Origin: Gemmatimonadota bacterium
Lineage (GTDB): Bacteria > Gemmatimonadota > Gemmatimonadetes > Longimicrobiales > Gaopeijiaceae
NCBI GenBank assembly: GCA_039589315.1
Contig: JBDHHQ010000016.1
Coordinates: forward strand, 1-64,000
Direction of reading: 5' to 3'
DNA length: 64,000 nt
The notes beneath the pieces are model-generated. The model had not been told where the DNA came from, did not search any database, and was given only the letters and a program-made list of their open reading frames with translations. Within the stretch, counting starts at the first letter, position 1. Every line of letters begins with the position of its first letter. A program made the translations under genes and the position numbers. This document shows positions 3,864-41,823 of the stretch, one piece after another.

Positions 3864-3883
3864 GGGAATCCTCCTTCTATTGC

Positions 3884-3927: not shown

Positions 3928-3998
3928 CGGTGCCTCGATCGCGGCGCCCCTAGCAACCGCCGCCCCTCTTGTCGCGGCCCCGTTCTATGGTCAGCGTC

Positions 3999-4352: not shown

Positions 4353-4402
4353 GTGTGTACTGTATACTAACTAGTACACGCTGTCAAGCCAGATGCTGTC
4401 AA
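4353..4402 (-). promoter_or_regulatory. Sigma70-type promoter (probably leaderless) with an overlapping palindromic operator
   Basis: Minus strand TTGACA (4382-4387)-N17-TACAGT (4359-4364)-6 nt-ATG. Inverted repeat GTGTACT-N11-AGTACAC (4355-4379). Second TTGACAGC copy at 4395-4402. Confidence 0.75.
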
Positions 4403-4499
4403 AGATGTCAGAGACTGGGTGCCCGCTCGAGGACTGCGGGGCCTCCGGCGCCGGGGGCGAAAGCGCCGGACGCTCGCATCCCCATCTTCAGCCAGGAGC

Positions 4500-7065: not shown

Positions 7066-7133
7066 GACGATTCAGCCTCGAACCAGGCTTGCGCCGGCAG
7101 GCGCGGGGGTTGCCCGGAGGCGAGCCGACGTCC

Positions 7134-7790: not shown

Positions 7791-7799
7791 TTTTCGACC

Positions 7800-8246: not shown

Positions 8247-8250
8247 GGGA

Positions 8251-10014: not shown

Positions 10015-10643
10015 GCCGGCTCCTCCTCGTCCTCATCGGTTCCGAACCGAGAGGCGCGTTGCCGCGCCTTCGCGAGCTTGGCCTGCACCACCGCTGCCCG
10101 CTCCAGGTCACCGAGGAAGATCCTGATCCGCTGGATGTTCTTCTTGGCACGGGGTATGAGGATCTTCTCGAAGAGGTTGACCCGCTGCGTGATCCGACGC
10201 TCGGCCCGGGTCAGGATGCGGACGCGCTCCTCGGCCACCTGGATGCGCGTCCTCGCTTCGGCGGCGTCCTTCAGGCGCTCCACGAGCGCGTCCACCCACG
10301 CTGGCTTGGCCAGTAGCGAGTACTCGGCGACCTCGCACTCGACGTTCTCGAGCAGCGGCAGCCGGACGCCCACGACGTTCTCCTCTTCGAGGTCGAAGGC
10401 GGTCATCCGCACCAGACCCAGGAGGTCGACGGCCGTATTGGCCAGCATGGGGAGCTCGACGCCGATGCGTGCTTCCAACCGCTCGACCTCGGCCTGCGTT
10501 GCTTTGTGCTCGTCTCTGGCCTTGTCGAGCTCCAGCTTGAGCTGCCGTCGCTTGAGATCCAGCGAAGGGAGCAGCTTCTCGTACAGCTGCAGGCGCGTTC
10601 GCTCCTGCTGCAGCGAGGCCTTGCTGAGCTTCAAGCGCGCCAT
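9996..10643 (-). CDS. ntpD: V/A-type ATPase subunit D
   Basis: LPSLDLKRRQL, ENVVGVRLP, TQRVNLFEKILIP. Confidence 0.95.
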   Translation of the reverse strand: MARLKLSKASLQQERTRLQLYEKLLPSLDLKRRQLKLELDKARDEHKATQAEVERLEARIGVELPMLANTAVDLLGLVRMTAFDLEEENVVGVRLPLLENVECEVAEYSLLAKPAWVDALVERLKDAAEARTRIQVAEERVRILTRAERRITQRVNLFEKILIPRAKKNIQRIRIFLGDLERAAVVQAKLAKARQRASRFGTDEDEEEPAWPSSP

Positions 10644-26175: not shown

Positions 26176-28629
26176 TCATGGCTTCCGGCTCCCACCCGCA
26201 TCGGCCCGGGCGCCGGGGTCGTCGCCCAACAGCTCCTGCTCGAACCAGCGCGTCATGCGCCGGTAGCTGTCGCGCCGGCTGGCCTCTTCGCGCCAGCCGT
26301 GGGGCTCCACGGGGTAGACCACCAGATCGAAGTCCTTGTCCTTTTCCATCATGACCTGGGCCAGCCGGAACGAATCCTGGATCTGCACGTTGTTGTCCAC
26401 CAGCCCGTGTTGGATCTGAAGCCCACTCTGATAGCTGTCCACGTAGTAGACCGGGCTGGAGACGGTGTACGCCTCCTCGTCCTCGGTGGGTGACCCGTTC
26501 AGGATGCGACTCGTGTACCCGTGGTTGTAGTGGGCCCAATCGGTGACGGGGTAGCGGGCCACGCCGGCTCGCCACCGGTCCGGATGCCGGAACAGGGCCA
26601 TGACGGTGAAGAAGCCTCCGTAGGACCCCCCATACACCCCGATCCGGTCGCGGGCCACGCCATGATCTCTCTCGAGGATGTCCAGTAGAGCCAGCCCGCT
26701 GTCGATGTCGCTGACGCCCATCTGACGGTAGGCGTAGGTCCGGTTGGCGTGGCCGTACCCCGAGCTGCCCCGGTAGTCCAGGTTGGCGGTGACGAACCCC
26801 CGGTCGTGCATGTACTTGGCGTAGAGCTTCGCACCAGTGCGGCGCCAGCCCTTCGTGACGCCCTGGGCGCATTCGCCGCAGCCGTGCACGTAGACCACCG
26901 CCGCGCTGTTGGGATCGGGGGGCGACTCCCAGATCTCGGCCCACGTCTCGCCCCCGTCGTAGTCCTGGAAGCTGATGATCTCGCTCTCCAGGAGGGGGAG
27001 CCGGTAGAAGTCGTCGGTACCCGACTTGGTGATCCGGGTGGCCTCAGCCCCTGGCTGAGAGTCCAGCAGGTAGAGATCCCGCATCAGGCGTGGCGTTTCG
27101 AAGAGCGTGGCGACCCTCTCGCCGTCAGGCGACACCGCAGCCAGGTGCATGCCTTCCCCCCAGGTGATCCGCTCGAGGTCACCTCCCCGGGCCGGTAGCC
27201 GGTACAGGTGCTCTTCGCCGGGATGCTCCCTGCTCGTGGTCAGGTACCACCAACGCCCGTCCCGGGAAGGCCGGGCGCCCCGGACCTCCCAGGCGCCGTC
27301 GGTGAGCTGTGTCACGGTGCCATCCGTGTCGGCCAGGTACAGCATGGACCAACCGCTGGCCGTAGAGGCAAACGCGAATCCGCTCCCGTCGGGGAGCCAC
27401 TGCATCCATCCCGGCGACCAGCGTCCCTCGACCAGGGGGCCGCCGATCCAAGCGTCCTCATGCTGGTGGTCCACGACGGTCAGACCGCCGGTCTCCACGT
27501 CGATGAAGGCGATCCAGCGGTCCTTGTGATCCATGGAGAGGATCTGCACCACGCCGTGCTCCCCCGTGGGGCTCCAGAAGGGACCGTGCGTGACCACGGC
27601 CTTGTCGGTGGGAGCATCGGCCCACGTCACCTCGATGGAGTCGGGCAGAACAGCGGCGTCCACCGGAACGATGCCGAAACGGAACTCCGGCAGGGGCTCG
27701 CCCACCTTCGGACGCGCCGGCCGTGGCTCGGCGTAGCCGCTCTCGTTCACATACTCCAGGAAATGGGTCTGATGCTCGCCTTTGGGCGTCTTGACCTCCA
27801 GGAAGGTCATGTAGCGGCCGTCCGGAGTGAGGCGGACGCTCGTGGGCACGGCACCATTGGCCGTGGGAATGGCCTGGACGGGATCGACCGAGAGCGAACG
27901 CTGGACGCTGTCGGCGACCTCCTGGTCCCGCTTGCGCTTGCGAACGGTCTCGATCAAGTCGAGCTGTTGGTCCGCGAGCCACTTCGCCGCATCCGTCGAG
28001 TCGTCGGCCGCGAGCTCGTGCGGCGCCGCCAGCTGGCGCACGCGCCCATCCACGAGCTCCGCGACCCACAGGTCCCCCGCGTCCTGAACGAAGCGCATGG
28101 GCTCGGGACGGCCCGGACCTCCGCCCCCGGGCGCGTGGGCGAAGAACGCGTGCATCCCATCGGGGGAGAGCTCCAGATTGCGGAGCTCGCGCTCGCTCCG
28201 GTAGACCGGGCGCGTGCCCTCGGCGCCATCCCACACGAAGAGCACGCCATCCCGGGTCCACGCCGCCCGACTCGCGTCTGCCGACCAGACCACGTCCGAG
28301 GGCACCAGCGCAGCTTCGGCCGCGTCCAGCCGTCGAGCTTCGTCGCCGTCAGGGTCCACGGCGTACCACGGATCCGTGGCCGGCACCTGGCCAGGAGCCG
28401 GGTCTTCGCGCCATTGGAAGTAGATCCACGCGCCATCCGGGGACCACGTCACGTTCCTGGGCGCGAGCCCCATCCAGCGAGCGTCCAGGGACAGGTGCTC
28501 GAGCGTGAGCTCGAAACCGGGGTCCACGTCGTCCAGGGTCAGATCCGACTGCCGTAGGAGCTGCGCATCGGTCGGGGTGGCTTGCGCGGCCAGGACCAAC
28601 GCCAGCGCGCCGACGAGGGTGCGGGTCAT
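26176..28629 (-). CDS. Secreted S9 family (prolyl oligopeptidase/DPP-IV-like) serine peptidase
   Basis: Signal peptide; WSPDG-type propeller repeats; DYRGSSGYG, GGSYGG nucleophile, DNNV, EPHG. Confidence 0.92.
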   Translation of the reverse strand: MTRTLVGALALVLAAQATPTDAQLLRQSDLTLDDVDPGFELTLEHLSLDARWMGLAPRNVTWSPDGAWIYFQWREDPAPGQVPATDPWYAVDPDGDEARRLDAAEAALVPSDVVWSADASRAAWTRDGVLFVWDGAEGTRPVYRSERELRNLELSPDGMHAFFAHAPGGGGPGRPEPMRFVQDAGDLWVAELVDGRVRQLAAPHELAADDSTDAAKWLADQQLDLIETVRKRKRDQEVADSVQRSLSVDPVQAIPTANGAVPTSVRLTPDGRYMTFLEVKTPKGEHQTHFLEYVNESGYAEPRPARPKVGEPLPEFRFGIVPVDAAVLPDSIEVTWADAPTDKAVVTHGPFWSPTGEHGVVQILSMDHKDRWIAFIDVETGGLTVVDHQHEDAWIGGPLVEGRWSPGWMQWLPDGSGFAFASTASGWSMLYLADTDGTVTQLTDGAWEVRGARPSRDGRWWYLTTSREHPGEEHLYRLPARGGDLERITWGEGMHLAAVSPDGERVATLFETPRLMRDLYLLDSQPGAEATRITKSGTDDFYRLPLLESEIISFQDYDGGETWAEIWESPPDPNSAAVVYVHGCGECAQGVTKGWRRTGAKLYAKYMHDRGFVTANLDYRGSSGYGHANRTYAYRQMGVSDIDSGLALLDILERDHGVARDRIGVYGGSYGGFFTVMALFRHPDRWRAGVARYPVTDWAHYNHGYTSRILNGSPTEDEEAYTVSSPVYYVDSYQSGLQIQHGLVDNNVQIQDSFRLAQVMMEKDKDFDLVVYPVEPHGWREEASRRDSYRRMTRWFEQELLGDDPGARADAGGSRKP

Positions 28630-28716: not shown

Positions 28717-29946
28717 CTACGCGGCCGCTCGCCACCCTCGGGTCGGAGACCCGGGTCCGGCACCCTGACGACGGCGCTCCGCCCGGCGAGCCCTGCGAGC
28801 CAGGAGGCGCAGAGTGCTCGATCGGGCCCAGTAGAAGGGGCGTGCCAGCCGGTGCCCGAGCACCTGCCCCGGCGTCAGTGCGCCCGTCGAGGCGCGGATG
28901 TAGTCCCCGCTGGGGAGCAGCCACCACCACGCCAGCTTGGCCTGGACGGCCGCGGAGCGTCGGCGAGTGCCTCGCGACCAGCGACCGGCCGTCCGCCCCA
29001 TCCTCAGCGCCATGTCTCTCTGGAGGGGCGTGACGTCGACGGCGAGCTGGTCGAGCTCATCGGAGGCCCACTCGGGCACGAGGGCGTCGAGCTCCCGGAC
29101 CAGGTACCCGAGGGCCACGGCCATGGGGACCGCCGACCCGGTGCAATGGGCGACCTCCACGAGCGACCGCCAATCATGCCGACCCATATGTCGGATCAAC
29201 TGCCAGGCATCCACGGCCCAAACCAGCGAGCTGGACGTGGGAGTGGAGGCAGCGTGCACACACACGTGGTGCAGGTGGTCGGCCGCGGACAGCGTCGGAG
29301 TCGGACACCCGGCCACCGTAGTCATACGGCCACGCGAGAAGAGGTCGGACCACGGCACCTGGTAGGAGGCGGACCGGAAGAGCCCAGACTGGACCACGAG
29401 GGGGAGCCCGGTGGGGTGGGAGAAGGCGATCTCGTCGGGGTAGTCCGCCAGCTCCGGAGCCGGGCGGAATCCGGCCGTGGCGAGTGCGTCGGCCGGCAGC
29501 TCCGGAGCCTCGGGCGGGACCAGCAAGTTGACGTCGTGGCTGTGGCGGAGCCGCGGCTCATCGTACGCCGCGTAGCCGAGAGCCGCCCCTTTGAGGAGCA
29601 GATAAGGGGCGCCCGTCCGGCCCAGCGCCTCCAGCAGAGCCGCGAGAACCCGCTCCACCTCACGACAGCGGAGCTCCTCGTGAAACGCCGCCGTCCGGAG
29701 ACGGGTCACGAGCTCGGCCGGTGCCGGCGCCCCGTGCCGAGCGAGCCCAGCCGTGAGCACCGGCGCCAGACGACGCTGCCCCCGTCCGCCGAGGCCCAGA
29801 AACGCGGGGACGTCCTCGACGGAGGCCATGAAGCCGGTCCAGGCGTCCCGTCCAGCAGCCTCGTCGTGTAGGCAAGCCCGTAGCAGGAGCGTGCGGTGCG
29901 CGTCGGGCAGGAATCGCCCCACCGCTGCGCGCAGTGCCGGATGCAT
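28717..29946 (-). CDS. Nucleotidyltransferase family protein (NTP_transf_5-like), degenerate acidic motif
   Basis: LLKGAAL...Y...RHSHDVNLLV (DxN instead of DxD), DHLHHVCVH. Start placed at ATG 29946. Confidence 0.8.
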   Translation of the reverse strand: MHPALRAAVGRFLPDAHRTLLLRACLHDEAAGRDAWTGFMASVEDVPAFLGLGGRGQRRLAPVLTAGLARHGAPAPAELVTRLRTAAFHEELRCREVERVLAALLEALGRTGAPYLLLKGAALGYAAYDEPRLRHSHDVNLLVPPEAPELPADALATAGFRPAPELADYPDEIAFSHPTGLPLVVQSGLFRSASYQVPWSDLFSRGRMTTVAGCPTPTLSAADHLHHVCVHAASTPTSSSLVWAVDAWQLIRHMGRHDWRSLVEVAHCTGSAVPMAVALGYLVRELDALVPEWASDELDQLAVDVTPLQRDMALRMGRTAGRWSRGTRRRSAAVQAKLAWWWLLPSGDYIRASTGALTPGQVLGHRLARPFYWARSSTLRLLARRARRAERRRQGAGPGSPTRGWRAAA

Positions 29947-29959
29947 GGACGTCCGCCGG

Positions 29960-30676
29960 CTAGGCCGCGCCTGCGGCCGGGTTGGTGCCCGCAACCCGCT
30001 TTCGGTCCAGCGCGCCCTTGAGGATGCCGAAGAACTCATCGAGGCTCCGGCTGGCGTGCGTGCGGCTGACGTTGTCCGGATGCAGGCGACGCAGGACCAT
30101 CACGTCGTCCAACAGCTCGCCCCTGACGTCCAGCTCTCTGGCCCGCAGGAACCAGTCCATGGAGTCGCCGTGCCCCAGAGAGGTGTTGAAGGGCCCGACC
30201 CGCCCGAAGGCGGTCTTCCGGGCCAGGAGCGCTTGCGTAACGTATGCGGCGATGGCCTGTCCCCGAGCGTGGCTCTGGAACTGCCGTGCCTCGTGGGCGA
30301 GCTCGTCTTCCCAGAAGTTCTGAGCGTAGCAGACCACGAAGTCGAGGTCTGGACGGGCGTTCAGAACGCCGACCTGCCGCTTCAGCTTCTCGGCCGTCCA
30401 GAGATCGTCCGCATCCAGGAATGCCACGAACTCTCCGTTCGTCAGACCGAGACCGTGGTTTCGGGTCGTGGCGGGTCCTGCGTTGTTCTGACGTACGTAG
30501 CGCACGGCCTCGCCGAACCCCCGGACCACGTCCGGCGTCGCGTCGGTCGAGCCGTCATCGACCACGATGATCTCGATGGGCAGGTAGGTCTGGGCGAGGA
30601 TGCTGTCCAGCGCCTTGGCCAGGTACCGCTCTCCGTTGTAGACCGGAACGATGCAACTCACCAAATGCGTGATCAT
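29960..30676 (-). CDS. GT2 family glycosyltransferase
   Basis: VSCIVPVYNGE, VVDDGSTD, RNHG, AFLDADDLW. Start overlaps the kinase stop (ATGA). Confidence 0.93.
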   Translation of the reverse strand: MITHLVSCIVPVYNGERYLAKALDSILAQTYLPIEIIVVDDGSTDATPDVVRGFGEAVRYVRQNNAGPATTRNHGLGLTNGEFVAFLDADDLWTAEKLKRQVGVLNARPDLDFVVCYAQNFWEDELAHEARQFQSHARGQAIAAYVTQALLARKTAFGRVGPFNTSLGHGDSMDWFLRARELDVRGELLDDVMVLRRLHPDNVSRTHASRSLDEFFGILKGALDRKRVAGTNPAAGAA

Positions 30677-31791
30677 GAGGTCACCTCCGTCAGGAGTCGT
30701 GCCACGCGGTCCGGGATCCGCTCCATGTCGCGGCCCAGCTCCAGCCAGAATGTGGGGATCGTCTCCACCATCTCGCCGAGACGCGCCAGCCCGTCCGGCC
30801 TCGCGCACGCGTGGGGGAGCTGGAGGAGCGTGCTGGGCGCGAGCCTGAGCAATGCTTCGAGTCGGCTGGCCGGCCGGACGCGGGTCTCTTCCGCATCCAC
30901 GACACGCGGCAACGCCAAAGCACGAATCGAGGTCCGCGCCGACAGGCCGTCGGGCTTCGCGTCGGCCAGTAGTACCAGGGACTTGTCCTCACCCGGCAGG
31001 CTTCCCGGAATCGCGTAGGGCGAGAGCCAGGGAAATCGCTCCAGGTGATGGGGCTCGAGGTGTGTGGAGGAATACATGCTGTGGCCTACGTATCCGTCCG
31101 GGGTTCGCTCGACCCCCACGTAGTCGTCGGCCTGGTACTGGAACCCGGCCTTGAGGCACGCGAGAGCCGTCGTCGACTTGCCCGATCCTCCTTGCCCCCC
31201 GAGCAGAATGCCCTGGCCGTCGAGTGACACGAGCCCCGCGTGGACGGGCTGGACCCTCCGGTCCTGATGCCAGAGAAGCAGCGCAGAATGGAGCGGACGT
31301 CCCTGCTCGTAGAGGGTGAGCTGACGGGCGTCTCCGACCCAGCCCGCGATGCGACGCTGGGCCCGATCGAAGCCTGCCACTGTCTGAGCGCGCTCATGAA
31401 TCAAGACCCGGCCGTCGTCCGAGGCCGTGACCTGTCCGCGCACGGCCAGGTCGGGGGCAGCTTCGATACCGGGGACCGTCACGCCGGTCTCGGCCTCGTC
31501 CCACATGTCGATGAACAGCCCCACGGCGTCGTCGTCGACCGGCTCACGGCGCAGGTGCCGGAACGGCCGATCGAGGGCCTCGGCCAGACGGCTGCCGAGA
31601 ACCCGAACGCGCACGGGACGACCCGCCAGCGTGTAGTACCGGGTCAGCGCCGCTGCAGACCCGTCGCCGCCGAGAGCGAGCTCGAACGCGGCCGCCAGGT
31701 CGTCGAAGGTCCGTCGGGCCTGGGCCGCTCCGCGCCGACCCGCCGCAAGGTGGGGGTCGGGAGGAGCGAGGGTGGCCTGCTCAGGCGTCAT
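30673..31791 (-). CDS. HPr kinase-like (HprK-related) P-loop kinase
   Basis: VHAGLV...GGQGGSGKSTT...ADDYV. Start at 31791 overlaps the end of the RRE gene. Confidence 0.85.
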   Translation of the reverse strand: MTPEQATLAPPDPHLAAGRRGAAQARRTFDDLAAAFELALGGDGSAAALTRYYTLAGRPVRVRVLGSRLAEALDRPFRHLRREPVDDDAVGLFIDMWDEAETGVTVPGIEAAPDLAVRGQVTASDDGRVLIHERAQTVAGFDRAQRRIAGWVGDARQLTLYEQGRPLHSALLLWHQDRRVQPVHAGLVSLDGQGILLGGQGGSGKSTTALACLKAGFQYQADDYVGVERTPDGYVGHSMYSSTHLEPHHLERFPWLSPYAIPGSLPGEDKSLVLLADAKPDGLSARTSIRALALPRVVDAEETRVRPASRLEALLRLAPSTLLQLPHACARPDGLARLGEMVETIPTFWLELGRDMERIPDRVARLLTEVTS

Positions 31792-32260
31792 CGGCTGGGT
31801 CCTGCCACGGGGTCTGGGCCAGGCCGGGCATGGGCGGATCCAGGGCCAGGAGCTCCGCCATGTCGGTAAAGGACTCGAGCTGGGGCGCCTCATAGGCCTC
31901 GGCGGCCCGGTCCCACGCCGTCGCCACCGCTTCCACCGGGACGTTGCCGCGGGTCTGGACCAGCCCCTCGTCCATCAGCCGGGTCGCCAGGCTTTCGACG
32001 TCCGCGAGCGCGGCGGCCTCGCTCACGGCATACCGCCGGGTCAGGGACTCGGCCGTCTCGGCCAGGCTGTGCCCCGCGACCAACCACTCCAGGACGAACG
32101 CCCCCGTGCCCGTCAGGCTGTAGTAGTAGCCGTTCGCCAGGTTCATGATTATGGCCTCGCCATCCATGACCTTCGCGGCCACGTCCGCCTCGTTGAGAGC
32201 GAGACGGTCGGCCTGGCCGAGCCTCACTCCGCTGTTCTGGATCGCTGATATCTCCGCCAT
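31781..32260 (-). CDS. PqqD family / RiPP recognition element (RRE) with C-terminal lasso-leader-like extension, 159 aa
   Basis: AAGGAG RBS; VMDGEAIIMNLANGYYYSLTGTGAFVLEWL...DVESLATRLMDEGLV (PqqD pattern), then YEAPQLESFTDMAELLALDPPMPGLAQTPWQDPADDA. Confidence 0.88.
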   Translation of the reverse strand: MAEISAIQNSGVRLGQADRLALNEADVAAKVMDGEAIIMNLANGYYYSLTGTGAFVLEWLVAGHSLAETAESLTRRYAVSEAAALADVESLATRLMDEGLVQTRGNVPVEAVATAWDRAAEAYEAPQLESFTDMAELLALDPPMPGLAQTPWQDPADDA

Positions 32261-32280
32261 GGGATCTGTCTCCTTGATCA

Positions 32281-33423
32281 TTAGGACGAGAGCCTTCTCC
32301 TGGAGCCCCGTCGGTTCCGTGCCACCCGTTCGTACAAAGCCTCGTACCGCTCCACGTACTGCTCCCAGCCGAAGTCCCGACCGGCCCTGTGGAGAGCGGC
32401 GCGGCCCATCGCTTCGGTCTCCTCCCGCTGCGCGAGGATGGCCTCCATCGCCCGGGCCCAGTCGTCCGGGCTCTCTGGCGGGACCAGCAACCCGGTCTCG
32501 CCGTCTGCCACCACCTCGACCAGCCCCCCGACCCGTGCGGCGATCACCGGCCGACCGAGTTGGGCGGCTTCCAGAGCCACCAGGCCGAAGGCCTCCCGTC
32601 TGGACGGCACGAGCAGGGCCGTGACCCGGTTGATCGAGTCCTGGACACGGGCCGGATCCACCCAGCCCGTCAGCTCGACCCGGTCGACCAGGCCGTGCTC
32701 CTGCACGAGCCGCTTCACGTCCGCGCGAGCCGGCCCATCTCCGGCAAGCACCATCCGTGCCGCCGGGAATCGGGCCGAGACCTGGTGGAAGGCCCGCACG
32801 GCGGTGTCGAAGCCCTTGTCGTGCACCATGCGGCCCAGGCAGAGCAGCACGGGTGGATCCCACGGCAGTGGCGTAGGCTGAACACCGGGCACCTCCAGCG
32901 CGTTGGGGATCACCGAGTGGGGAGTCCGGCTGGGCGATGCCAGCCCCCCGTAGCTCTGGCGCACGGCCTCGCTGCAATACGCGATCCAGTGGGCGTCCCG
33001 CAAAGCCCCTGAGACCAATGCGCTTAGGGCGTCCACGGCTTCCAGGGTCTCCGCCTGCTGCATCGTCACCAGGACGGGGGGTGCCTGGGCCGACGGCGTC
33101 GTGAGCCGCTGGAAGAGCGTACCCGGCCCGACCTGGCCGATGTGCACCACGTCCGGGCCGAAGTCCGCCCGTGCGGCGGACGCCTGGTAGAGGGTCTCCC
33201 GGAACAGTCGCCGATCGCCCTCGCTCAACGCCTGCCAGAAGGGGAATCGCAGGATGCGAACGCCTTCATGTCGGTCGTCGCGAGGGAGATCGCTGCCGTC
33301 GTGTTGTGTGAAGACCACACACTCGTGACCTCGGTCCGTCAGCGATCGGAGCAAGGCCGCCGAGATCCGGGGCACCCCACCGACTGCCGGCCAGTAGCCC
33401 TCCGTCCAGTAGAGGATCTTCAT
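32281..33423 (-). CDS. GT4 family glycosyltransferase (paralog A)
   Basis: MKILYW...GG, LCLGRMVHDKGFD, GDGP, PSRREAFGLVALEAA (EX7E). Confidence 0.93.
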   Translation of the reverse strand: MKILYWTEGYWPAVGGVPRISAALLRSLTDRGHECVVFTQHDGSDLPRDDRHEGVRILRFPFWQALSEGDRRLFRETLYQASAARADFGPDVVHIGQVGPGTLFQRLTTPSAQAPPVLVTMQQAETLEAVDALSALVSGALRDAHWIAYCSEAVRQSYGGLASPSRTPHSVIPNALEVPGVQPTPLPWDPPVLLCLGRMVHDKGFDTAVRAFHQVSARFPAARMVLAGDGPARADVKRLVQEHGLVDRVELTGWVDPARVQDSINRVTALLVPSRREAFGLVALEAAQLGRPVIAARVGGLVEVVADGETGLLVPPESPDDWARAMEAILAQREETEAMGRAALHRAGRDFGWEQYVERYEALYERVARNRRGSRRRLSS

Positions 33424-34196
33424 CAAACGAGCGCCCGCCGTGACGGATTCGCGGTGGATGCGCCCTCTCCACCGGACGACCACGCGGCGGAGGACAACCT
33501 CGTAGCCCTTGACTCCGGGGCAGACGACTCCGTGGCGGACCTCGCGCCGATGGCGTAGCGCAGGTGGAAACCCTCCAGATCGCCCTCGAGGCTGTCCCGG
33601 AGCAGCTCGTTCAGCTCCTCCGGGCGGACGTGAACGCCGAACGGGTCCGCCTTGGGCGTCTGTCGATGGAAGATGCCGATGCGTACCGCGACGAAGGTTC
33701 GCAGCCGGCCCGTATCCACGAACACGTGACCGGCCATCTCCCCGACTCCTTTGGACAACCCGTACGGACACGTGGGACCCAGCAGTTGGGGATCCTCCGG
33801 GAGTCCCGCTTTCCCCCGCTCCTCGAGGAGTTTCGTGACCGACCACAGGGAGCTGGCGAACACCACTCGGGGGATGCGGCGCGCGGCTGCCTCCTCGAGG
33901 ACGTTCCAGGTCACCTTGATGTTCGACTCGAGCACCTCTGACCAAGTCGAAGCGGGACTGACCACCGCTGCCAAGTGGAGAACCGCGTCCGCGCCATCGA
34001 ATGCCCGCTGCCAGCGGGAGCGGCGACGCCCGACCGCGCGCAAGAGGCGGCCCGGGCGGCGGCTGAGGTCGGCGCGGAGAACCGGACCTCGGCGCGGCGC
34101 CCGCACGTCGATGCCGACGACCTCATGTCGCGCAGCGAGGTACGGAATCACCGTGCGTCCGATCCGCCCTCGCGCCCCCGTGACGACGATGCGCAT
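33423..34196 (-). CDS. NAD-dependent epimerase/dehydrogenase (extended SDR, uronate dehydrogenase-like)
   Basis: VVTGARGRIG, HLAA, VFASS, YGLSK, VRIG. Confidence 0.88.
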   Translation of the reverse strand: MRIVVTGARGRIGRTVIPYLAARHEVVGIDVRAPRRGPVLRADLSRRPGRLLRAVGRRRSRWQRAFDGADAVLHLAAVVSPASTWSEVLESNIKVTWNVLEEAAARRIPRVVFASSLWSVTKLLEERGKAGLPEDPQLLGPTCPYGLSKGVGEMAGHVFVDTGRLRTFVAVRIGIFHRQTPKADPFGVHVRPEELNELLRDSLEGDLEGFHLRYAIGARSATESSAPESRATRLSSAAWSSGGEGASTANPSRRALV

Positions 34197-34200
34197 GGGC

Positions 34201-35331
34201 TCAGGCGGCCCGCCGTATCAACCGTCGATACATCGCGTCGTACTCGGCCACGTACCGGTCGAGGGAGAAGCGCTCCGTGGCGCGCATGTGGCCCTGCTCG
34301 CCCAGGGACCGAGCCTGATCCGGGCTCCGTAGAAGCCGTTCCAGGGCGCCGGCCATGGCGGCGGGGTCCTCCTTGGGGACCGTCAGGCCGGACTCCTGAT
34401 GTGCCACGACCTCGACGAGACCGCCGACTCGAGTGGCCACGACGGGTCGCCGCATGAGCGCCGCCTCGACTGCTACCAGACAGAAGGGCTCCTCCCAACG
34501 GGATGGGATGACCACAGCCGAGGACCGGTTCAGCTCCGCGGGCACGTCCTCCGGGCTTACCCAGCCCGTGAACTCCACCGCGTCCTCGATCCCGAGGCTC
34601 CGAGCCAAGCTCTCCAGAGCCGCTCGTTCCGGTCCGTCACCCGCCACGGTGAGCTGGGCCTCCGGGAACGTCTCGCGGAGCAAGGCGAAGGCGTGTACCG
34701 CGGTGTCGAATCCCTTGTCGTGCTTCAGACGGCCCAGGCAGAGCAGCCGCGGGGGATCGAAGGGCAGGGGCGTCGGTTCGAGGACCGGCGTATCCAGACC
34801 GTTGTAGACGACGCTGGACCTGCCCACGATGTCGGGAGCGGCCCGGTGGGCGTCGGCGAGAACGGCGCCGGAATTGGCTGTCACCCAGTCCGCGCCCCGA
34901 AGCAGCCGCGTGATCAGGCTGTCGTCCGAGTACTCCCGGGGGAGCGGTGACCGAATGGCCAGGATCCAGGGTTCGGCCTCACGGGACGCGCTGGCCATGT
35001 GGAAGTAGCCACTGGGCCCCGCGAAGTTCACGTGGGTGATGGTCGGGCGAAACTCCGCCCTCAGCCGTGTGACCGCCTTGCCCATACGAAGCATGCCCAA
35101 GGGGTCCCGCGCCTCCAGGACCTGCCGGAACGGGAAGCGATGGATGGGCACTCCGTCGCGGACCTCGAAATCGGGCAGGTCCATCTCGGCGTGGGCCGTG
35201 ACTACGGCGATCTCGTAGCCCCGCTCCCGTAGCTCCTTCAGGAGCTTGGCGCTCAACACCTCCACGCCGCCGATGTAGGGCCAGAAGAGCTCGGTCCAGT
35301 AGAGCAGTCTCATCCCGTTTTCCCCGGTCAT
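34201..35331 (-). CDS. GT4 family glycosyltransferase (paralog B)
   Basis: LLYWTELFWPYIGG, LCLGRLKHDKGFD, GDGP, PSRWEEPFCLVAVEAA. TAATG coupling to the upstream nucleotidyltransferase. Confidence 0.93.
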   Translation of the reverse strand: MTGENGMRLLYWTELFWPYIGGVEVLSAKLLKELRERGYEIAVVTAHAEMDLPDFEVRDGVPIHRFPFRQVLEARDPLGMLRMGKAVTRLRAEFRPTITHVNFAGPSGYFHMASASREAEPWILAIRSPLPREYSDDSLITRLLRGADWVTANSGAVLADAHRAAPDIVGRSSVVYNGLDTPVLEPTPLPFDPPRLLCLGRLKHDKGFDTAVHAFALLRETFPEAQLTVAGDGPERAALESLARSLGIEDAVEFTGWVSPEDVPAELNRSSAVVIPSRWEEPFCLVAVEAALMRRPVVATRVGGLVEVVAHQESGLTVPKEDPAAMAGALERLLRSPDQARSLGEQGHMRATERFSLDRYVAEYDAMYRRLIRRAA

Positions 35332-36611
35332 TACGTACCCTCCAATCCCAGCATGCCCTGGCGCCAGAAGCGCAGGCTCTCCCGCCCCCGTTGGGAGGCG
35401 GCGAGCCCCATGGCGCGAAGGAACGCCAGGGCGTTGTAGGCCAGGAGCTGGACGATTCTCCAGCTCCCCACGATCGGTCTGAAACTTCCCTTGGCCGCTT
35501 CTTCCGACTTCAACACCGCCATCGGTCGACTCCAGATCATCTCGACCAGGAACGCCACCCGGTCCCTCCAGCGTGTCAGCGTCCACAGCCGCAAGGAGCG
35601 ATACGCCGCGCGACGGACCGCGGCGTGACGTGTGATGGTGGCGTGAACCGGGTCCAGAAGCGCCAGCTGCAGGCGTGTCAGGGGGGGAAGGTCCAGCTCG
35701 GCGATGGCCGTGTCGGGCACCGGGGTGCCCAGGATCGTGCGGGCCAGCTGTAGCGCCAACGCCAGCCGCAGCTCCCCTCCGCAACTCAGGGCGGTCCGGG
35801 CCAGCTCCCGCCAGTCCAACTCCGGGCTGTGGCTTACGATCCGGTGGATGTCGACGACCCGCTTCAGCTGCGTGAAACCGCTTTCCTTGAACTGATGAGC
35901 CAGGTGAAGGACCATGTCTTCGGCACAGGGGACCCGCAGCCTCGACCCGTTGGGACCCGGGCGATCCGTCGCTCGTGCCCAGAAGCCCCGAGCGTCCGGC
36001 ACCACCGGAGAGCCGGGCACGTCCAGTCCCCAGTGGATCTCACAGCAGAATCCGTTGCGGTGCACCATGGGAACGTGGTAGTGACCGGCCATCAGGGTAT
36101 CGAGGTCCTGCTCCGGCCACTCCGGCTCGTAGCCGGCGCGCCGGGCCAGGGCCATGGCGTCGGCGACCCGCTCCGGCTCGACGAGAACGTCCAGGTCGCT
36201 GAGAGATCGCTCCACGGAGTCCTCTATGACCGTCGCCCGAAGCGCCGCCCCCTTGAGGAGGACCATGGACGGCCCGTTCCGGTGGAAGAGCGTGGCGAGA
36301 CGGTCCCGTTCCATGTCCCAGAGCATGGCCTGCCGCTCCAGAAGACGCAGGGGCTCGAGAACCTCCTGCGCCGCCATCTGCCCCACGACCCTCTCCAGGC
36401 GCGCACGCTGGAGGTGGCGCAGTGCCAGGCCCAGCACCCCGTGCTCCTGAGCGAGGCGGTGGAAGGCCTCCCGAACGGGCCGTTCCTTCATGGCCTCCAG
36501 ACCGACCAGGGGTGCGTCGGGATCGCCGGTGCGTCGAACCAGCGCCACCAGCAGGCGCTCGTGAGCGTCCAGACGCTGACGGGGAAGAATGGACCTGATG
36601 CCCGGGCTCAT
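35331..36611 (-). CDS. Nucleotidyltransferase family protein (NTP_transf_5-like), intact motif
   Basis: LLKGAAL...RSLSDLDVLV (DxD), CEIHWGL, EDMVLHLAH. Start placed at ATG 36611. Confidence 0.85.
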   Translation of the reverse strand: MSPGIRSILPRQRLDAHERLLVALVRRTGDPDAPLVGLEAMKERPVREAFHRLAQEHGVLGLALRHLQRARLERVVGQMAAQEVLEPLRLLERQAMLWDMERDRLATLFHRNGPSMVLLKGAALRATVIEDSVERSLSDLDVLVEPERVADAMALARRAGYEPEWPEQDLDTLMAGHYHVPMVHRNGFCCEIHWGLDVPGSPVVPDARGFWARATDRPGPNGSRLRVPCAEDMVLHLAHQFKESGFTQLKRVVDIHRIVSHSPELDWRELARTALSCGGELRLALALQLARTILGTPVPDTAIAELDLPPLTRLQLALLDPVHATITRHAAVRRAAYRSLRLWTLTRWRDRVAFLVEMIWSRPMAVLKSEEAAKGSFRPIVGSWRIVQLLAYNALAFLRAMGLAASQRGRESLRFWRQGMLGLEGT

Positions 36612-36979
36612 GCGGTTGCGGACCCTCGGTGTCGAAGATGATCGGCGGGACGTCTCCCACTGGGACCAGGCGAAGGCAAGCACCGTGCCCCTTCACCGAC
36701 GGCGTTCGACAACGGGTTGAACGGCTTCGGTTTATGGTGTCTGGCTCCTTCACACGTCCCTCGCTCGACCGTGTCGCGCTCCGGGCACCTGGTGGGAACC
36801 GCGGCATGATCCGTGCACTTTCCCGATGCCCGCCCGCTTCGGGGCGGTCGCGGGTGACGCAGCGAGGGCTATGCATGTCCACAGGGACGGTTCCGGCCAG
36901 GCCGACAACGACGTCGGCGCCGAGGCCATCCGCGGCCGGACCGGCTGCCCGGCGCTGACCGATCGCCCGCCACGCGACT

Positions 36980-38857
36980 GTGGCATCCACGCGACAGGTG
37001 CCGATGCAGATTCCGGCTTGGCCGCACATCAAGAGTCTCTTCCGCCGTCAGCGGCGGCTCATGGGCCGTTTCGTGGTCACGTCGCTGGGAGAGTCCGTCC
37101 TGACCATGGCAGGGATCCTACTCGTCAAGGAGTTCCTGTCGGGGGTGCTGGGAGGGGACGGGGGCATGGCCTCGCGGGCAGCCGAGGTGCTGGGGCCCGG
37201 TGTGGCGCTGTGGACCGTCGCGGCCCTGCTCCTGGGTACGTACGTGGGCGCCAGCCTGCTCCGCTACGACAACTCGGTCACGCAGCAACGGATCGTCAAG
37301 GTCCTCGAGCTGGGGGTCATGGAGCGGCTGGTCCGACAGGTGCTGTCCCTGTCCGTCTCCTTCGTCGAGCGCCAGAGTCACGGAGACATCATCCAGGCCG
37401 TGCGTTCCGACGTCGCGTCACTGCGGGAAGTGGTTCTTTCCTACGCCCGCATGTTCCTGGACGGCATGGTGACCGTGGGCCTGCTCTTCGCGGCGATCAT
37501 GCTTTCCCCGGCCCTCACGCTCTTCGCCCTTCTGGCGTTGCCCCTCGGCGTGTTCCCGCTCTTGATGATCGGCCGCGCGACGCGGGAGAAGTCGTTCGAG
37601 GTCCGCGAGACCCGCTATGCCCTCTTCGACGCGGTTCTCCAGATCCTCCGGGGGATCCGGGTCACGAAGGTCTACCACGGTGAGGGGGCGGCGGCCCGGG
37701 AGGCCGTGCGGAAGGGGAGCGCGCACTTCGACGCGCTCATCGAGATGGTCCGCATCCGTGCCATGTCGCGGGTGGTGCTCCAGTCACTCTCCGGACTCAG
37801 CCTGGTGATCGTGGTGGTTGCCGGCGGGTTCCAGGTCATGAGCGGGGCCCTGTCCTGGCCGTCGTTGCTCGCCTTCCTGATGGCCATCCGGGCGCTGCAC
37901 ACGCCGCTGAACTCGGTCAACGCCGCGTACGTCCAGGTCAAGCGGCAGGGCGCGGCGCTGGACCGCATCGAGGACCTCCTCCGCGAGCGTCCCGACGTGG
38001 CCGACCCCCCGGGTGCAGTCCCGCAGGAGCTGGCGTCCGGACAGGTCTCCTTCGACCAGGTCCGCTTCTCCTACGCCGAGCAGGACGTGCTGCGGGGTGT
38101 GTCCTTCGACGTGGCGCCGGGGGAGACGATCGGAATCGCCGGCCCGTCAGGCGCGGGAAAGTCCACGATCCTGAGCCTGGTGGCTCGCTTCTACGATCCC
38201 ACCGACGGGTCCGTCCGCACAGACGGGCGCAACCTGCGGGAGTACCGGTCGGCGGACGTCTACCAGAGCGTGGCCATCGTGACGCAGCAGCCCTTCCTGT
38301 TCTCGGCGTCCGTGCTCGACAACATCGCCTGCGGACGGCCGGGCGCGTCCGTCGACGAGGTCGTCGAAGCCGCCAAGGCGGCCGAGATCCATGACGAGAT
38401 CCTGGCACTGGAGGACGGCTACGATACGCTGCTCGGCCGGGGCGGCCGGGAGATCTCGGTGGGACAGGCTCAACGCGTCAACATCGCTCGGGCCCTGCTC
38501 AAGGAAGCCCCCATCCTCCTCCTGGACGAGGCCACGGCGAGCCTCGATTCCCTCTCGGAGGAGCGGGTGCAGCGTGCCATCGACCACCTGATGCAGGGAC
38601 GAACCACCTTCATCGTGGCCCACAGGTTGTCAACGCTGAGAGGGGCGGACAGGATCCTGGTCCTCGAGGACGGCCGGCTGGTGGCGTCCGGTCCACACGA
38701 GGACCTGCTGCTCGGCTGCCCGCTGTACTTCCGGCTCTGGGAGACCCAGCACCTGGGCTTCACGTCGCCTGACCGCGTGACCGGGGTCGACGAGGGCGAC
38801 CACCGGGCCATCCTGACCTCCGCCTCCGCCTCCGCCTCCGAGCGGACACACCCCTGA
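36980..38857 (+). CDS. ABC exporter, fused permease-ATPase (MsbA/PglK-like, no C39 peptidase domain)
   Basis: N-terminal TM region; GPSGAGKS, ISVGQAQR, LLLDEAT, AHRLST. Confidence 0.92.
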   Translation: MASTRQVPMQIPAWPHIKSLFRRQRRLMGRFVVTSLGESVLTMAGILLVKEFLSGVLGGDGGMASRAAEVLGPGVALWTVAALLLGTYVGASLLRYDNSVTQQRIVKVLELGVMERLVRQVLSLSVSFVERQSHGDIIQAVRSDVASLREVVLSYARMFLDGMVTVGLLFAAIMLSPALTLFALLALPLGVFPLLMIGRATREKSFEVRETRYALFDAVLQILRGIRVTKVYHGEGAAAREAVRKGSAHFDALIEMVRIRAMSRVVLQSLSGLSLVIVVVAGGFQVMSGALSWPSLLAFLMAIRALHTPLNSVNAAYVQVKRQGAALDRIEDLLRERPDVADPPGAVPQELASGQVSFDQVRFSYAEQDVLRGVSFDVAPGETIGIAGPSGAGKSTILSLVARFYDPTDGSVRTDGRNLREYRSADVYQSVAIVTQQPFLFSASVLDNIACGRPGASVDEVVEAAKAAEIHDEILALEDGYDTLLGRGGREISVGQAQRVNIARALLKEAPILLLDEATASLDSLSEERVQRAIDHLMQGRTTFIVAHRLSTLRGADRILVLEDGRLVASGPHEDLLLGCPLYFRLWETQHLGFTSPDRVTGVDEGDHRAILTSASASASERTHP

Positions 38858-38861
38858 GGCC

Positions 38862-39386
38862 CTACCGAATCGCGGCCAGGATTCTGGATCCGGCGGCGGT
38901 GAGGAGGCCCTGGGTCACGCTGAACGAGATCACGGCGGCCGCACCCTCGTTGGCCCCGGTGCCCGCTTCCTCCAGCAGTTTCAGGAGGCCTGCGCCGGCT
39001 ACGGCTCCCACGGCCGCACCCACGGCGGCGCCCAGTAGATCAGGGTCCGTACGGGCAAGCCGCCCCACCAGGAAGTCGCCAGCGGCCGCCCCCACCGCAC
39101 TGGACAGGCCCACCAGGGCCACATCGTTCAGGGTGCACGACAGGTCCTCGCCACAGTCGTCTGGTTGAGCGATGAGGATGCCCAGACCGACACCGACCAG
39201 CGATCCTCCCACTGCTCCCGCCGACTCCAGACCGAACGCGGCCAGCCCCGTCGGTCTCTCGGTCTCCTGAGCGCCCAGCTGGAGGGGTGCGCAGAGGCAT
39301 AGGGCTGGAACCGCGATAGCCGTCAGGCCGGTCAAGCCGGTGGCAGGCGGCCTGCGCCTTCGCGGCCTTCGCCGGCTCCAGGACAT
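38862..39386 (-). CDS. Hypothetical Gly/Ala-rich membrane or exported protein
   Basis: Signal-like N-terminus, glycine-zipper-like helices and a Cys pair (DDCGEDLSC). Confidence 0.6.
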   Translation of the reverse strand: MSWSRRRPRRRRPPATGLTGLTAIAVPALCLCAPLQLGAQETERPTGLAAFGLESAGAVGGSLVGVGLGILIAQPDDCGEDLSCTLNDVALVGLSSAVGAAAGDFLVGRLARTDPDLLGAAVGAAVGAVAGAGLLKLLEEAGTGANEGAAAVISFSVTQGLLTAAGSRILAAIR

Positions 39387-39402
39387 GAACGGCTCCGGTC
39401 GC

Positions 39403-41823
39403 TCAATCCTCCCGTAGCGCCATGACCGGCTCCACGCCACTCGCCTTCGCCGCGGGGAGCAGCACGGACACCAGCGCGGCACCACCCAGCGCCAGGGCCA
39501 CCCAACCCGCCATACCGAACCCGAAGTCGCTCTCGAACAGGTTCAAGGCGTTCTGGACGCCCCGGTACATGAGCCAGGCCAGGGGGAGCCCGACGAGCAT
39601 CCCCGCCCCCGCCAGCGTCAGGCCGGTGCGCGTCACCATGCCCACCACGGACTTTTGCTGGGCTCCCAGGGCCATGCGGATGCCGATCTCGCGGCGCTGC
39701 TGAGCGACGGCGTGGTTCATGACGCCGTAGATGCCCATGGCGGCCAACAGCAGCGCGATCCCTCCGATCACCATGAGGAAGGACGAGATCGCCTCCGGGC
39801 CGGCCAGCGACTCCCGCTGGTGGGCCTCGAACGTGCGCAGCAGGGCGATGGGCTGGTCGGGCTCCACCGACCAGATCGCCTGGCGCACGTCGCCAGCCAG
39901 GGAGGCCGGGTCGTCTGCGTTGGTCCTGAGCGCGAAGCTGGGGTTCCGCACTGGGTACTGGGAGAAAGGCAGGTAGATGGCCTCGCCCTGCCGGCCCGCG
40001 ATGGCGATGCGCTCCTGCATAATGTCCTCGACCACGCCCACGATGACGCGGGACTCGTCGCGAACGGTGAGGGTCTTGCCCAGGGGATCCTCGTCGGGGA
40101 ACTCCCGGTCCGCGAGAGCCTGGCTCACGACCGCCACCTTCTGAGCGTCCTCCCGGTCCGACTCCTGGAGCAGGCGGCCCTGGCGGAGGGCGATCTCCAT
40201 GGTGGAGAAGTATGCCGGGTTCACGATCTGGAAGCTGGCTTCGGGCTGCTCGGTGGGTTCCGGCGTGGGGCGCCCGTCCACGGTGTAGCGGGTCATGGGG
40301 TTCCCCCGGCCTCTGGGCAGGCTGGCCATGACCGCGACGTCCTGGACCCCGGGCACGGTGCCGAGCACCCGGATCAGCTCCGTCTCGTACGCCATGACCT
40401 CCGTGTCCTCGGCGTAGCGATCGTCGAGCACGGACACCTGGAAGGTCAGGAGTCCCTCGGGATTGAAGCCGGGATCAGCGTCGTTCAGCGCGCTGAACAC
40501 GTTCACCAGGAAGCCCGCCCCGGTGAGGAGCGAGAGCGCCACCGCGAACTCGCCGATCACGAAGGCGTTACGGAGGCGCTTGCGCCGCCGTCCCGCCGTC
40601 CCCCCCCGGGCCCCTCCGCCCAGGGACTCTCTGAGATCGGCCCGTGCCGCCGTGAATGCGGGCGCCAGTCCGAAGAGCACGCCGGCCCCCACGGCGACCA
40701 TCAGCGTGACCGCCACCACCTCGGGAGCCAGGTCGGGCATCATGGCCCGGGGCATCTCGGCGGGCATGGCCGACTGTATCCAGCGGACGATCCAGATCGC
40801 AAGCGCGACGCCCACGGCGCCCGCGATCGTGCCCAACGTCACGCTTTCGGTCAGGAGCTGCCGGAGAATCCGGGTGCGGCCAGCACCCAGGGCCGTGCGC
40901 ACCGCCACCTCGCGTTGCCGCAGCTCGGCCCGCCCCAACAACAGGTTGGCCACGTTGGCGCAGGCGATCATCAGGCCGAAGAGGGTCACGGCGGTGAGGA
41001 TCATCATCAGCTTCGTGTCGGTGGGGCCCGGGAAGAACTCCCGGAGTCCCATCATGCGAAGCTCCCAGCCACGGTTGGCATCCGGAAACTCGGTCGCCAG
41101 GCGTGTCGAGACCCCGGCCAGCTCGAGCTGGGACTGCTCGAGGGTGGCGCCGGGCCGCAGCCGCGCGATGGCGATGTAGCCCCGGCCGGCGCGCTGGTCC
41201 ATCCGGTCCATGAAGTCGGTGGGCCGGAAGGCCTGCACATTGGCGGGGATCATGTCGAACTCGGGAGGCGTGACGCCCACGATCGTATACGTCGTCCCGT
41301 CCAGCGTCATGGTCTGCCCGAGGATGTCACGATCCCCGAAGAAGCGCCGTTCCCAGAAGTCGTGCTGCAATACGAGCACGTTGCCGAGTCCTTCTGCTCC
41401 CTCCTCTCGCCTGAATCCCCGCCCGATGGCGGGCGGCACGCCCAACACGTCGAAGAGCTCGGGCGTGGCAACGACGACCTGGAGCCGCTCGGGCACGTCG
41501 GTCCCCGTCAGGTTGGCATTCTCCAGCGTGTAGGCGGTGGCCGCCGCGAAGGTGCTGCTGGCCTCCACGTAGTCGCGGAAGTTGGGGATCGAGGCGCCGG
41601 ACGCCATCTCGATGCTCTCGCCCTGGCGACCTTCCCGCAGGATGAGGAGGCCGTCCTGATCGTGGTAGGGTAGCGGCTCGAAGAACCACGCGTTCAGGAT
41701 CGAGAACATGGATGCGTTCGCAGCGATCCCCAGCGCCAGGGACAGCGCCGCCACGGTTGAGACGACGGGCGCCTTGAGCAGCATCCGCAGCCCGTACTTG
41801 AGATCCTGGACGATCGTGGTCAT
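39403..41823 (-). CDS. ADOP family duplicated ABC permease, copy 3 (no N-terminal prefix)
   Basis: QDLKYGLRML, LALGIAAN, IACANVANLLL, REIGIRMALGA, EPVMALRED. Confidence 0.92.
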   Translation of the reverse strand: MTTIVQDLKYGLRMLLKAPVVSTVAALSLALGIAANASMFSILNAWFFEPLPYHDQDGLLILREGRQGESIEMASGASIPNFRDYVEASSTFAAATAYTLENANLTGTDVPERLQVVVATPELFDVLGVPPAIGRGFRREEGAEGLGNVLVLQHDFWERRFFGDRDILGQTMTLDGTTYTIVGVTPPEFDMIPANVQAFRPTDFMDRMDQRAGRGYIAIARLRPGATLEQSQLELAGVSTRLATEFPDANRGWELRMMGLREFFPGPTDTKLMMILTAVTLFGLMIACANVANLLLGRAELRQREVAVRTALGAGRTRILRQLLTESVTLGTIAGAVGVALAIWIVRWIQSAMPAEMPRAMMPDLAPEVVAVTLMVAVGAGVLFGLAPAFTAARADLRESLGGGARGGTAGRRRKRLRNAFVIGEFAVALSLLTGAGFLVNVFSALNDADPGFNPEGLLTFQVSVLDDRYAEDTEVMAYETELIRVLGTVPGVQDVAVMASLPRGRGNPMTRYTVDGRPTPEPTEQPEASFQIVNPAYFSTMEIALRQGRLLQESDREDAQKVAVVSQALADREFPDEDPLGKTLTVRDESRVIVGVVEDIMQERIAIAGRQGEAIYLPFSQYPVRNPSFALRTNADDPASLAGDVRQAIWSVEPDQPIALLRTFEAHQRESLAGPEAISSFLMVIGGIALLLAAMGIYGVMNHAVAQQRREIGIRMALGAQQKSVVGMVTRTGLTLAGAGMLVGLPLAWLMYRGVQNALNLFESDFGFGMAGWVALALGGAALVSVLLPAAKASGVEPVMALRED

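Follow-up and report, generated by a model that had tools for sequence, protein, structure and literature searches.

A RiPP recognition element with an apparent built-in leader and core in a widespread bacterial cassette of kinase, nucleotidyltransferase and glycosyltransferase genes

HprK-like kinases acting on peptides have been described in lasso peptide clusters and in the linear polyphosphorylated peptide (LPP) clusters of Bacillota, where the leader motif Y-x-x-P-x-L is bound by a recognition element (RRE) of peptides that are made by ribosomes and modified after translation (RiPPs) (Popov et al. 2026, PMC13381572). The lasso kinases are reported to share a His-Lys-Asp-Asp set of residues, some of them adding phosphate onto phosphate to give phosphoanhydrides (PMC9266682), and the nucleotidyltransferase PsmN, which needs its DxD motif, puts a hexose on phospho-Ser (PMC6993621). 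In LppA, the leader Tyr is at −16 and the phosphorylated residue is Ser3, i.e., Y+18 (PMC13381572); in BsfA, Tyr is at −17 and Ser3 at Y+19, and phosphorylation is boosted by the RRE (PMC10368454). Here, we analyze a related locus at positions 28717 to 38857 of a 64,000-nucleotide stretch of a Gemmatimonadota genome (GCA_039589315.1, contig JBDHHQ010000016.1; hereafter the window, contig C16 of source genome G000). Its eight minus-strand genes encode, in order, a nucleotidyltransferase (NT1), a GT4-family glycosyltransferase (GT4a), a short-chain dehydrogenase/reductase (SDR), a second GT4 enzyme (GT4b), an RRE, an HprK-like kinase, a GT2-family glycosyltransferase (GT2) and a second, divergent nucleotidyltransferase-family protein (NT2). 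The operon is one copy of a widespread bacterial gene cassette that has no name, and its "missing" precursor seems to be carried on the RRE as a fused C-terminal tail.

The RRE protein (P0001, 159 aa; PF05402) is encoded at 31781–32260, with an alternative start at 32281. A PqqD-type domain (residues ~19–104) is followed by a variable linker (104–121) and a conserved tail (123–146), the protein extending about 55 residues past the domain. The first part of the tail, the cis leader motif Y123-E-A-P126-Q-L128-E-S-F131 (31868–31894), is supported by conservation among representatives and by a predicted strand at 128–131; the second, the core D133-M-A-E-L-L-A-L-D141-P-P-M-P-G146 (31823–31864), places Asp141 (codon 31838–31840) at Y+18. 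The general tail pattern is YxxPxLxx[YF]xDMxDLLxLDP, with Asp where LPP has Ser. The first-pass annotation had reported no standalone precursor, which holds for separate genes: none of the 132 small open reading frames (ORFs) in the 26–42 kb region was precursor-like, and the loose string [YW]xxPx[LVIFA], present in eight of them, was read manually each time as a shadow frame or as lacking leader context. A precursor-like element does exist, in the form of the RRE's own C-terminal tail. No other match to the tail profile was found in the source genome at E < 1, and an exact-word search for the D-P-P tail subtype gave no candidate for a stand-alone tail peptide of 30–86 aa. Longer tail fusions were not found by word search either, a weak negative, since another search did find fusions.

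The closest named relative, also from Gemmatimonadota, has an 84% identical RRE. Among 120 homologues, which were collected via shared words and are thus biased towards the tail, invariant columns were concentrated in the tail (Y123, M134, L138–P143 and P145). A second set of 134 single-module representatives, clustered at 50% and drawn with the A1 profile (and so also partly biased), gave entropies of 2.12 bits for the body, 3.45 for the linker, 1.91 for the leader part and 0.92 for the core; in the A1 alignment, the tail had 0.91 versus 1.67 for the body. The core is therefore more conserved than the RRE fold. Within the leader motif, Y and P were each kept in 130 of the 134 representatives and L in 123, and Asp141 was kept in 120/120 homologues and 132/134 representatives. 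Two tail subtypes were observed, D-P-P and D-P-I-H, with Pro after the Asp in both; they have in common D at +10, hydrophobic residues at +11, +14, +15 and +17, D at +18 and P at +19, and nothing else. The tail has no conserved Ser, Thr or Tyr; from +10 onward, Ser and Thr were both absent from 54 of 264 tails. Matches of the RRE in the ESM Atlas were to PqqD clusters only. At one related locus (L057, 3556–3966), several frameshifts break the RRE and neighbouring genes and probably represent assembly errors.

To describe how the tail may be arranged, we used an AlphaFold2 model of P0001 (mean predicted local distance difference test score, pLDDT, 81.9). This model showed a strand at 128–131, with a mean pLDDT of 93 over 121–130, and an amphipathic helix at 134–139, followed by low confidence beyond about residue 141. 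The best fold matches were lasso B1-leader complexes (5v1v, 5v1u and 6jx3; Z 11.8–12.3), with a resemblance to TbiB1. When mapped by spacing only, the LppB pocket residues Y60, D70, F74, M78 and L83 corresponded to Y77, D87, L91, L95 and L100, of which D87 was kept in 129 of 134 representatives. Judged from model confidence, secondary structure and these pocket residues, the tail is predicted to fold back into the RRE's own cleft. In the absence of its leader, LppB was insoluble (PMC13381572).

We also examined proteins that combine two or three RRE modules. Exactly one intact core was present in all 11 of them (P0122–P0125, P0129, P0132, P0153, P0163, P0175, P0205 and P0241), and the remaining modules mostly kept a leader-like stretch. 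Two, P0163 (with three RREs) and P0241, are RRE-kinase fusions with the kinase at the end, and in three multi-RRE proteins the core was internal, with further domains after it. Since there is one core but a leader-like stretch per module, the leader part resembles a plug that every RRE requires; the core resembles a lone functional site, linked to the kinase. Some D-P-P-type tandems end with an extra conserved G-D-[IV]-x-W element.

The association between kinase and tail was determined in 401 genomes of the window's phylum, with a tailed RRE called at E < 1e-24 when the match reached the tail. The tailed RRE was found in 11 genomes and the kinase subfamily in 11, with an overlap of 10 (10, 10 and 9 without the unpublished genome G155). 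All kinase-subfamily matches had E < 1e-71, with none between that value and 1e-25. As for the exceptions, G242 had its RRE 2.5 kb from a contig end, and G212 contained the kinase, GT4, GT2 and NT2 with only a tail remnant at the RRE's place; there (L150, 4685–5182), the RRE domain is lost and the remnant lies upstream of an intact kinase-GT4-GT2-NT2 run. The kinase profile, a search not selected on the tail, was then applied to two further phyla (centres titled Cyanobacteria and Acidobacteriota), with 301 genomes per phylum, and matched 13 and 12 of them, respectively. The 29 kinase-anchored neighbourhoods include four from two genomes that had initially come up through their RRE. An RRE with a core was present in 26 of the 29 (24 of the D-P-I-H and two of the D-P-P subtype), or in 24 of 25 once those four were dropped. 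All 26 of these RREs have Asp at +18, a position that the pattern left free while requiring D at +10 and P at +19. Over the three phylum samples, the distribution of the kinase subfamily follows that of the tailed RRE. A metagenome scan with the kinase returned one short contig, and a match on a Tistrella plasmid (H2) was dropped, as it had tailless RREs beside a cyclase-like gene.

The kinase (372 aa; 30673–31791) belongs to a cassette-specific subfamily and matches Hpr_kinase_C at 34.5 bits (cut-off 33.3). Its His184, Lys205, Asp222 and Asp223 are intact, and were kept in 62, 62, 57 and 62 of 62 sequences, respectively. It scored far below all named HprK-like families: with the TIGRFAM models of the HPr-rel-A, HprK-rel-B and SynChlorMet systems (TIGR04352/04353/04355/04249, of which TIGR04353 was applied to the RRE), the kinase reached 22, 22 and 30 bits, against cut-offs of 200, 200 and 125; P0001 gave no match to TIGR04353, which the three-RRE fusion P0163 passed by its summed score (38 versus 35). 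NT1 (426 aa; 35331–36611; PF14907, 134 bits) is PsmN/LppN-like, with the canonical motif K-G...R-x-x-x-D140-x-D142 and E-x-H. Residues K121, G122, R136, D140, D142 and H194 were invariant in 36 sequences, with DxD in 36/36, and NT1 grouped in a tree with the nucleotidyltransferase of a lasso cluster on contig C64 of the same genome.

NT2 (409 aa; 28717–29946; PF14907, 111 bits) formed a separate clade, and carries R134-H135-x-H137-[D/A/G]-x-[D/E/N] and H177. In the D-P-P subtype, R-H-x-H and H177 were each kept in 43 of 44 sequences, the first Asp was replaced in 18 of 44 and the third acid was not conserved; DxD was missing in four of six D-P-I-H sequences. The AlphaFold2 model (pLDDT 91.9) showed a Pol-beta nucleotidyltransferase fold near those of ANT(2''), LnuA and FKRP (for ANT(2''), Z 13.5, root-mean-square deviation 3.6, 166 aligned residues), and the NT2 profile had no sequence match in the PDB. 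Since the metal motif is degenerate while the fold is kept, NT2 is either altered in chemistry or non-catalytic. GT2 is a short, single-domain protein (238 aa; 29960–30676; PF00535) with an intact DxD (D88-A-D90-D91), its conserved residues being present across 128 sequences.

The remaining cassette genes encode GT4a (376 aa; 34201–35331; PF00534/PF13439), GT4b (380 aa; 32281–33423; PF00534) and an extended SDR (257 aa; 33423–34196; PF01370), an accessory whose GxxGxxG and YxxxK motifs are intact and were conserved across 14 sequences; the top NCBIfam match of the SDR was under its cut-off and no PDB sequence matched at 1e-8. A divergent plus-strand gene (36980–38857) encodes an accessory MsbA/HepA/PglK-like ATP-binding cassette (ABC) exporter of 625 aa (ABC_membrane, PF00664, and ABC_tran, PF00005), with all NCBIfam matches under cut-off. 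The eight coupled genes and this exporter, as read in the first-pass annotation, were confirmed: all eight minus-strand frames were open, with a GC content at third codon positions of 0.81–0.90; the junctions from NT1 to NT2 measured −1, +4, −1, +20, −11, −4 and +13 nt, with a TAATG overlap between NT1 and GT4a and a TGATG overlap between SDR and GT4b; and the Pfam families were two PF14907, two GT4, NAD epimerase/SDR, PF05402, Hpr_kinase_C and GT2, plus the two exporter domains. The GT4b-RRE junction becomes −1 instead of +20 nt if the upstream ATG is used. Likewise, the macrolactam cyclase (PF00733) and B2 peptidase (PF13471), reported absent from the window, had no match on its contig in genome-wide profile searches. 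No SipW-like signal peptidase or PEARL enzyme was present among the nine genes of the locus, which fall in other Pfam families, and no sigma-70-like promoter was found at the locus, where terminator-like matches occurred only at chance level.

Conserved synteny in homologues, proposed as a check in the first-pass annotation, was observed. We examined 80 genome loci from more than 10 phyla (by titles), found with patterns that include the tail, of which 46 were well covered (at least 5 kb on both sides). GT2 was found in all 46, the kinase in 43, NT2 in 42, NT1 in 30, GT4 in 26, the ABC exporter in 11 and the SDR in six, with a cyclase match in one. The kinase was the next labelled gene downstream of the RRE in 40 of 79 loci. 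Export as a core feature is not supported: only 11 of the 41 well-covered loci in this comparison had an exporter at a distance of 9 kb or less, of three kinds (MsbA-like, in seven of the 41, Wzm/Wzt and Wzx). In this count, L059 and L131 are two entries for a single locus. Accessory genes among 87 loci included sulfotransferases (12), MsbA-like exporters (12), AGE-family epimerases (9), lactonases (7), Wzx (6) and Wzm (6), as well as phosphodiesterases and methyltransferases, and a close SDR type occurred in 12. SDR and SMP-30/gluconolactonase genes were found together in six of the seven lactonase loci (L025, L026, L030, L050, L097 and L138), a pairing that suggests aldonic or aldaric acid building blocks. 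Clustering of all ORFs, together with a Pfam scan of 118 of the 218 gap ORFs (E ≤ 1e-12), revealed no recurring peptidase, SipW-like peptidase or priming undecaprenyl-phosphate transferase, and no alternative acceptor gene recurs in the loci. A complete D-P-I-H cassette is present on the mobilizable plasmid pCRI9333.04 of a cultured cyanobacterium, Crinalium epipsammum PCC 9333 (L097, 5896–17248).

We propose that the kinase modifies the tail at Asp141, and that the resulting aspartyl phosphate is extended to a phosphate-linked glycan by the PsmN-like transferase and the glycosyltransferases, a reading to which we assign a probability of roughly 40%. Asp141 is put forward because its register matches the known phospho-Ser sites and because no Ser, Thr or Tyr is conserved. 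The RRE would present its own core to the kinase; the acyl-phosphate intermediate formed on Asp141 would be capped or glycosylated by NT1, as PsmN does; GT2 and GT4 would extend the chain into a glycan; and NT2 may be a His-based off-loading enzyme or a non-catalytic partner. On chemical grounds, the Pro after the Asp would stop the activated Asp from closing to an aspartimide. There are precedents: Asp/Glu activation through acyl phosphates is carried out by ATP-grasp RiPP ligases, and in inter-alpha-inhibitor heavy chains a glycan is attached as an ester at Asp-Pro sites. A phospho-glycan on a peptide or carrier protein, possibly the RRE's tail, had been suggested in the first-pass annotation and is favored by the comparative sequence data; the paeninodin-style Ser phosphorylation logic as such is not supported, since the tail has no conserved Ser or Thr.

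Several observations weigh against Asp141 as the acceptor. In the texts cited, the demonstrated substrates of HprK-like peptide kinases are Ser and phospho-Ser, and none is a carboxylate (PMC13381572, PMC6993621, PMC9266682, PMC10368454); LppK rejects even S3T and S3Y (PMC13381572). The register match could be due to chance or reflect docking only, and a beta-bulge in LppA shifts the three-dimensional register (PMC13381572). At +18, E was found in three and N in one of the 264 tails. Asp133 is almost as conserved as Asp141, and part of the conservation pattern is thus accounted for by an acidic docking helix. NT1 was seen in only 30 of the 46 well-covered loci, and the SDR, lactonase and AGE-family accessories suggest free-sugar chemistry that may feed the kinase instead. 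Finally, three of the 29 kinase-anchored loci contained no tailed RRE in range (one with no RRE, one with a weak kinase and a tailless RRE, and one with a strong kinase and tailless RREs). In one genome, G424 (L048, L061 and L205–L207), four strong kinases of the cassette type occur, and the RREs next to one of these are tailless.

Some of these points would suit a tail that is never modified. As a docking or activating motif, the self-liganded RRE would organize the kinase, NT1/NT2 and the glycosyltransferases around a sugar, glycan, lipid or other protein, and its acidic residues may even supply the carboxylates lost by NT2. The lack of a conserved hydroxyl residue, the degenerate NT2 metal motif in both subtypes, the glycan-type accessory genes and the predicted amphipathic helix make this the main rival, only a little less probable than modification at Asp141; the single core per multi-RRE protein and the invariant Asp-Pro at the phospho-acceptor register fit a modified site better, and no other acceptor or priming transferase recurs. 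That the tail is a true RiPP precursor, cut by a housekeeping protease or at Asp-Pro and exported by the ABC transporter as a glyco-phosphopeptide, seems unlikely. Its leader-core layout and the MsbA-like exporter recall LPP clusters, and an S9 prolyl-oligopeptidase-family gene, which reads as having a signal peptide, lies 87 nt downstream of NT2 (26176–28629, minus strand). However, this peptidase did not recur in related loci and was dropped as a dedicated protease, no other peptidase recurred among the neighbourhood clusters, exporters were infrequent with two of the three types being glycan flippases, and the residues after the core, which is internal in three multi-RRE proteins, vary in length and sequence. 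That the kinase is an ordinary HPr kinase/phosphorylase, and the locus a polysaccharide operon of a generic kind in which the PqqD protein is a bystander, is very improbable: the PDB sequence matches of the kinase are indeed HPrK, over about 57 positions only, but it scored 35 bits with TIGR00679 (cut-off 240), and its subfamily is associated with the tailed RRE in three phylum samples.

The genome also contains a complete lasso cluster, the existence of which had been named as a possible refutation. On contig C64 (about 2700–10170; L016), we found a nucleotidyltransferase, a tailless RRE, a precursor, a cyclase, an oppositely oriented kinase, a B2 peptidase (85.6 bits with NF033537, whose cut-off is 33) and an ABC transporter; in the rest of the genome, PF13471 gave only a weak match, on C12. 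The precursor (8020 to about 8190, minus strand) has a Y-x-x-P-F leader and a core with two Cys, the leader-core junction and ring residue of which are not obvious. The cluster thus exists, but it is self-contained, with its own copy of each tailoring gene, including RRE, kinase and nucleotidyltransferase, and does not account for the window enzymes. For the B2 peptidase, PF13471 was searched in 50 of the 79 genomes that supplied the related loci, namely those whose loci were longer (metagenome-assembled genomes, completeness not given): it matched over the cut-off in 22, was not over it in 28 and gave no match at all in 24. Since a match is often missing, lasso genes do not seem to be required for the cassette. 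Hence, although L018 has lasso-like genes beside the cassette, tailoring of the C64 peptide by the window enzymes is highly unlikely, the more so as no cyclase or B2 match occurred in the 29 kinase-anchored loci and as the RRE's own tail is predicted to occupy the cleft. A "lassoC" match in L021 was rejected as a lasso cyclase; it is a GATase-bearing Asn-synthase, probably a glycan amidotransferase. Near the lasso cluster (L016, 12188–17921) lie genes that we take, from their translations, to encode two cyanophycin synthetase-type proteins and a cyanophycinase. Convergent on the ABC gene in the window is a small ORF (38862–39485, minus strand) that has no Pfam match and resembles a hydrophobic membrane protein rich in Gly/Ala; a similar unassigned ORF occupies the same place in L017.

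If Asp141 is modified, the fate of the product must be considered. Since the loci yielded neither a conserved protease nor a lipid transferase for priming, the RRE protein is most likely a reusable carrier or itself the glycosylated product; with export variable as well, a carrier regenerated like TglA is possible. In a fuller version, which we regard as rather unlikely, the tailed RRE would be a reusable glycan-assembly carrier: the kinase would prime Asp141 by turning it into an acyl phosphate, NT1 would add the first sugar, GT2/GT4 would extend it and the His-rich NT2 would off-load the phospho-glycan to its final acceptor, giving an acyl-carrier-like, undecaprenyl-independent start of glycan synthesis, evolved from lasso tailoring and present in more than 10 phyla. 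The cassette links RiPP machinery to glycan biosynthesis via a chaperone carrying its own leader, and the tailed RRE offers a soluble, single-chain substrate for the question of how PsmN/LppN/BsfN-type transferases function. Were the Asp model true, carboxylate phosphorylation would join the activities of HprK-like peptide kinases, and glycobiology would gain a primer borne by a protein.

In literature searches, largely without subscription journals, we found no description of the tailed RRE or the cassette, and tail-motif strings returned no papers. The main text of RRE-Finder (PMC7470986) mentions RRE-glycosyltransferase fusions and does not contain "kinase", "nucleotidyltransferase" or "HPr"; the supplements of this paper and of that on LPP (PMC13381572) could list such clusters. 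The present analysis contributes a test anchored on the kinase, the register of the Asp, the rule of one core per protein and the clade of degenerate NT2 proteins.

Among the described systems, the LPP clusters (PMC13381572) share the discrete RRE, HprK-like kinase, nucleotidyltransferase and MsbA-like exporter without a cyclase, as well as glycosyltransferase-rich surroundings, the YxxP leader and the acceptor register Y+18. They include a SipW-like peptidase, and their precursor is a separate peptide with a Ser acceptor, within a pattern (YxxPxVLxHQxIxFETxxS, with Ser3) that the tail does not match; in the cassette, leader and core are fused to the RRE, no peptidase is present, Asp stands at the acceptor register, a second, degenerate nucleotidyltransferase and GT2/GT4 core genes are found, and the loci come from many other phyla. 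The Bsf lasso system (BsfK/BsfB1/BsfN; PMC10368454) has RRE-assisted phosphorylation just past the leader (Y+19), much as proposed for the cassette, which is sensitive in BsfA to the hydrophobic residue four before the acceptor, a place held here by Leu137; it differs by its separate precursor, Ser acceptor, cyclase and B2. The pseudomycoidin and paeninodin enzymes PsmK and PsmN (PMC6993621, PMC9266682) resemble those of the window in the His-Lys-Asp-Asp kinase and in a PF14907-type, DxD-containing nucleotidyltransferase of a type associated with hexosylation of a phospho-residue, whereas the window has no cyclase, B2 or C-terminal Ser. Pearlin scaffold peptides such as TglA (PMC9016710) are alike in concept only, as ribosomal peptides that carry cargo and are regenerated; they use PEARL/tRNA enzymes, bear an amino-acid cargo at the C-terminus and are not fused to an RRE. 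Compared with lasso systems in general, the RRE has the discrete B1-type fold, although P0001 scores below the NF033530/NF033536 cut-offs, and a separate precursor with a YxxPxL leader and Thr(−2) is lacking. Overall, the cassette works like an LPP/pseudomycoidin tailoring set, yet falls outside the lasso, LPP and TIGRFAM HprK-related systems.

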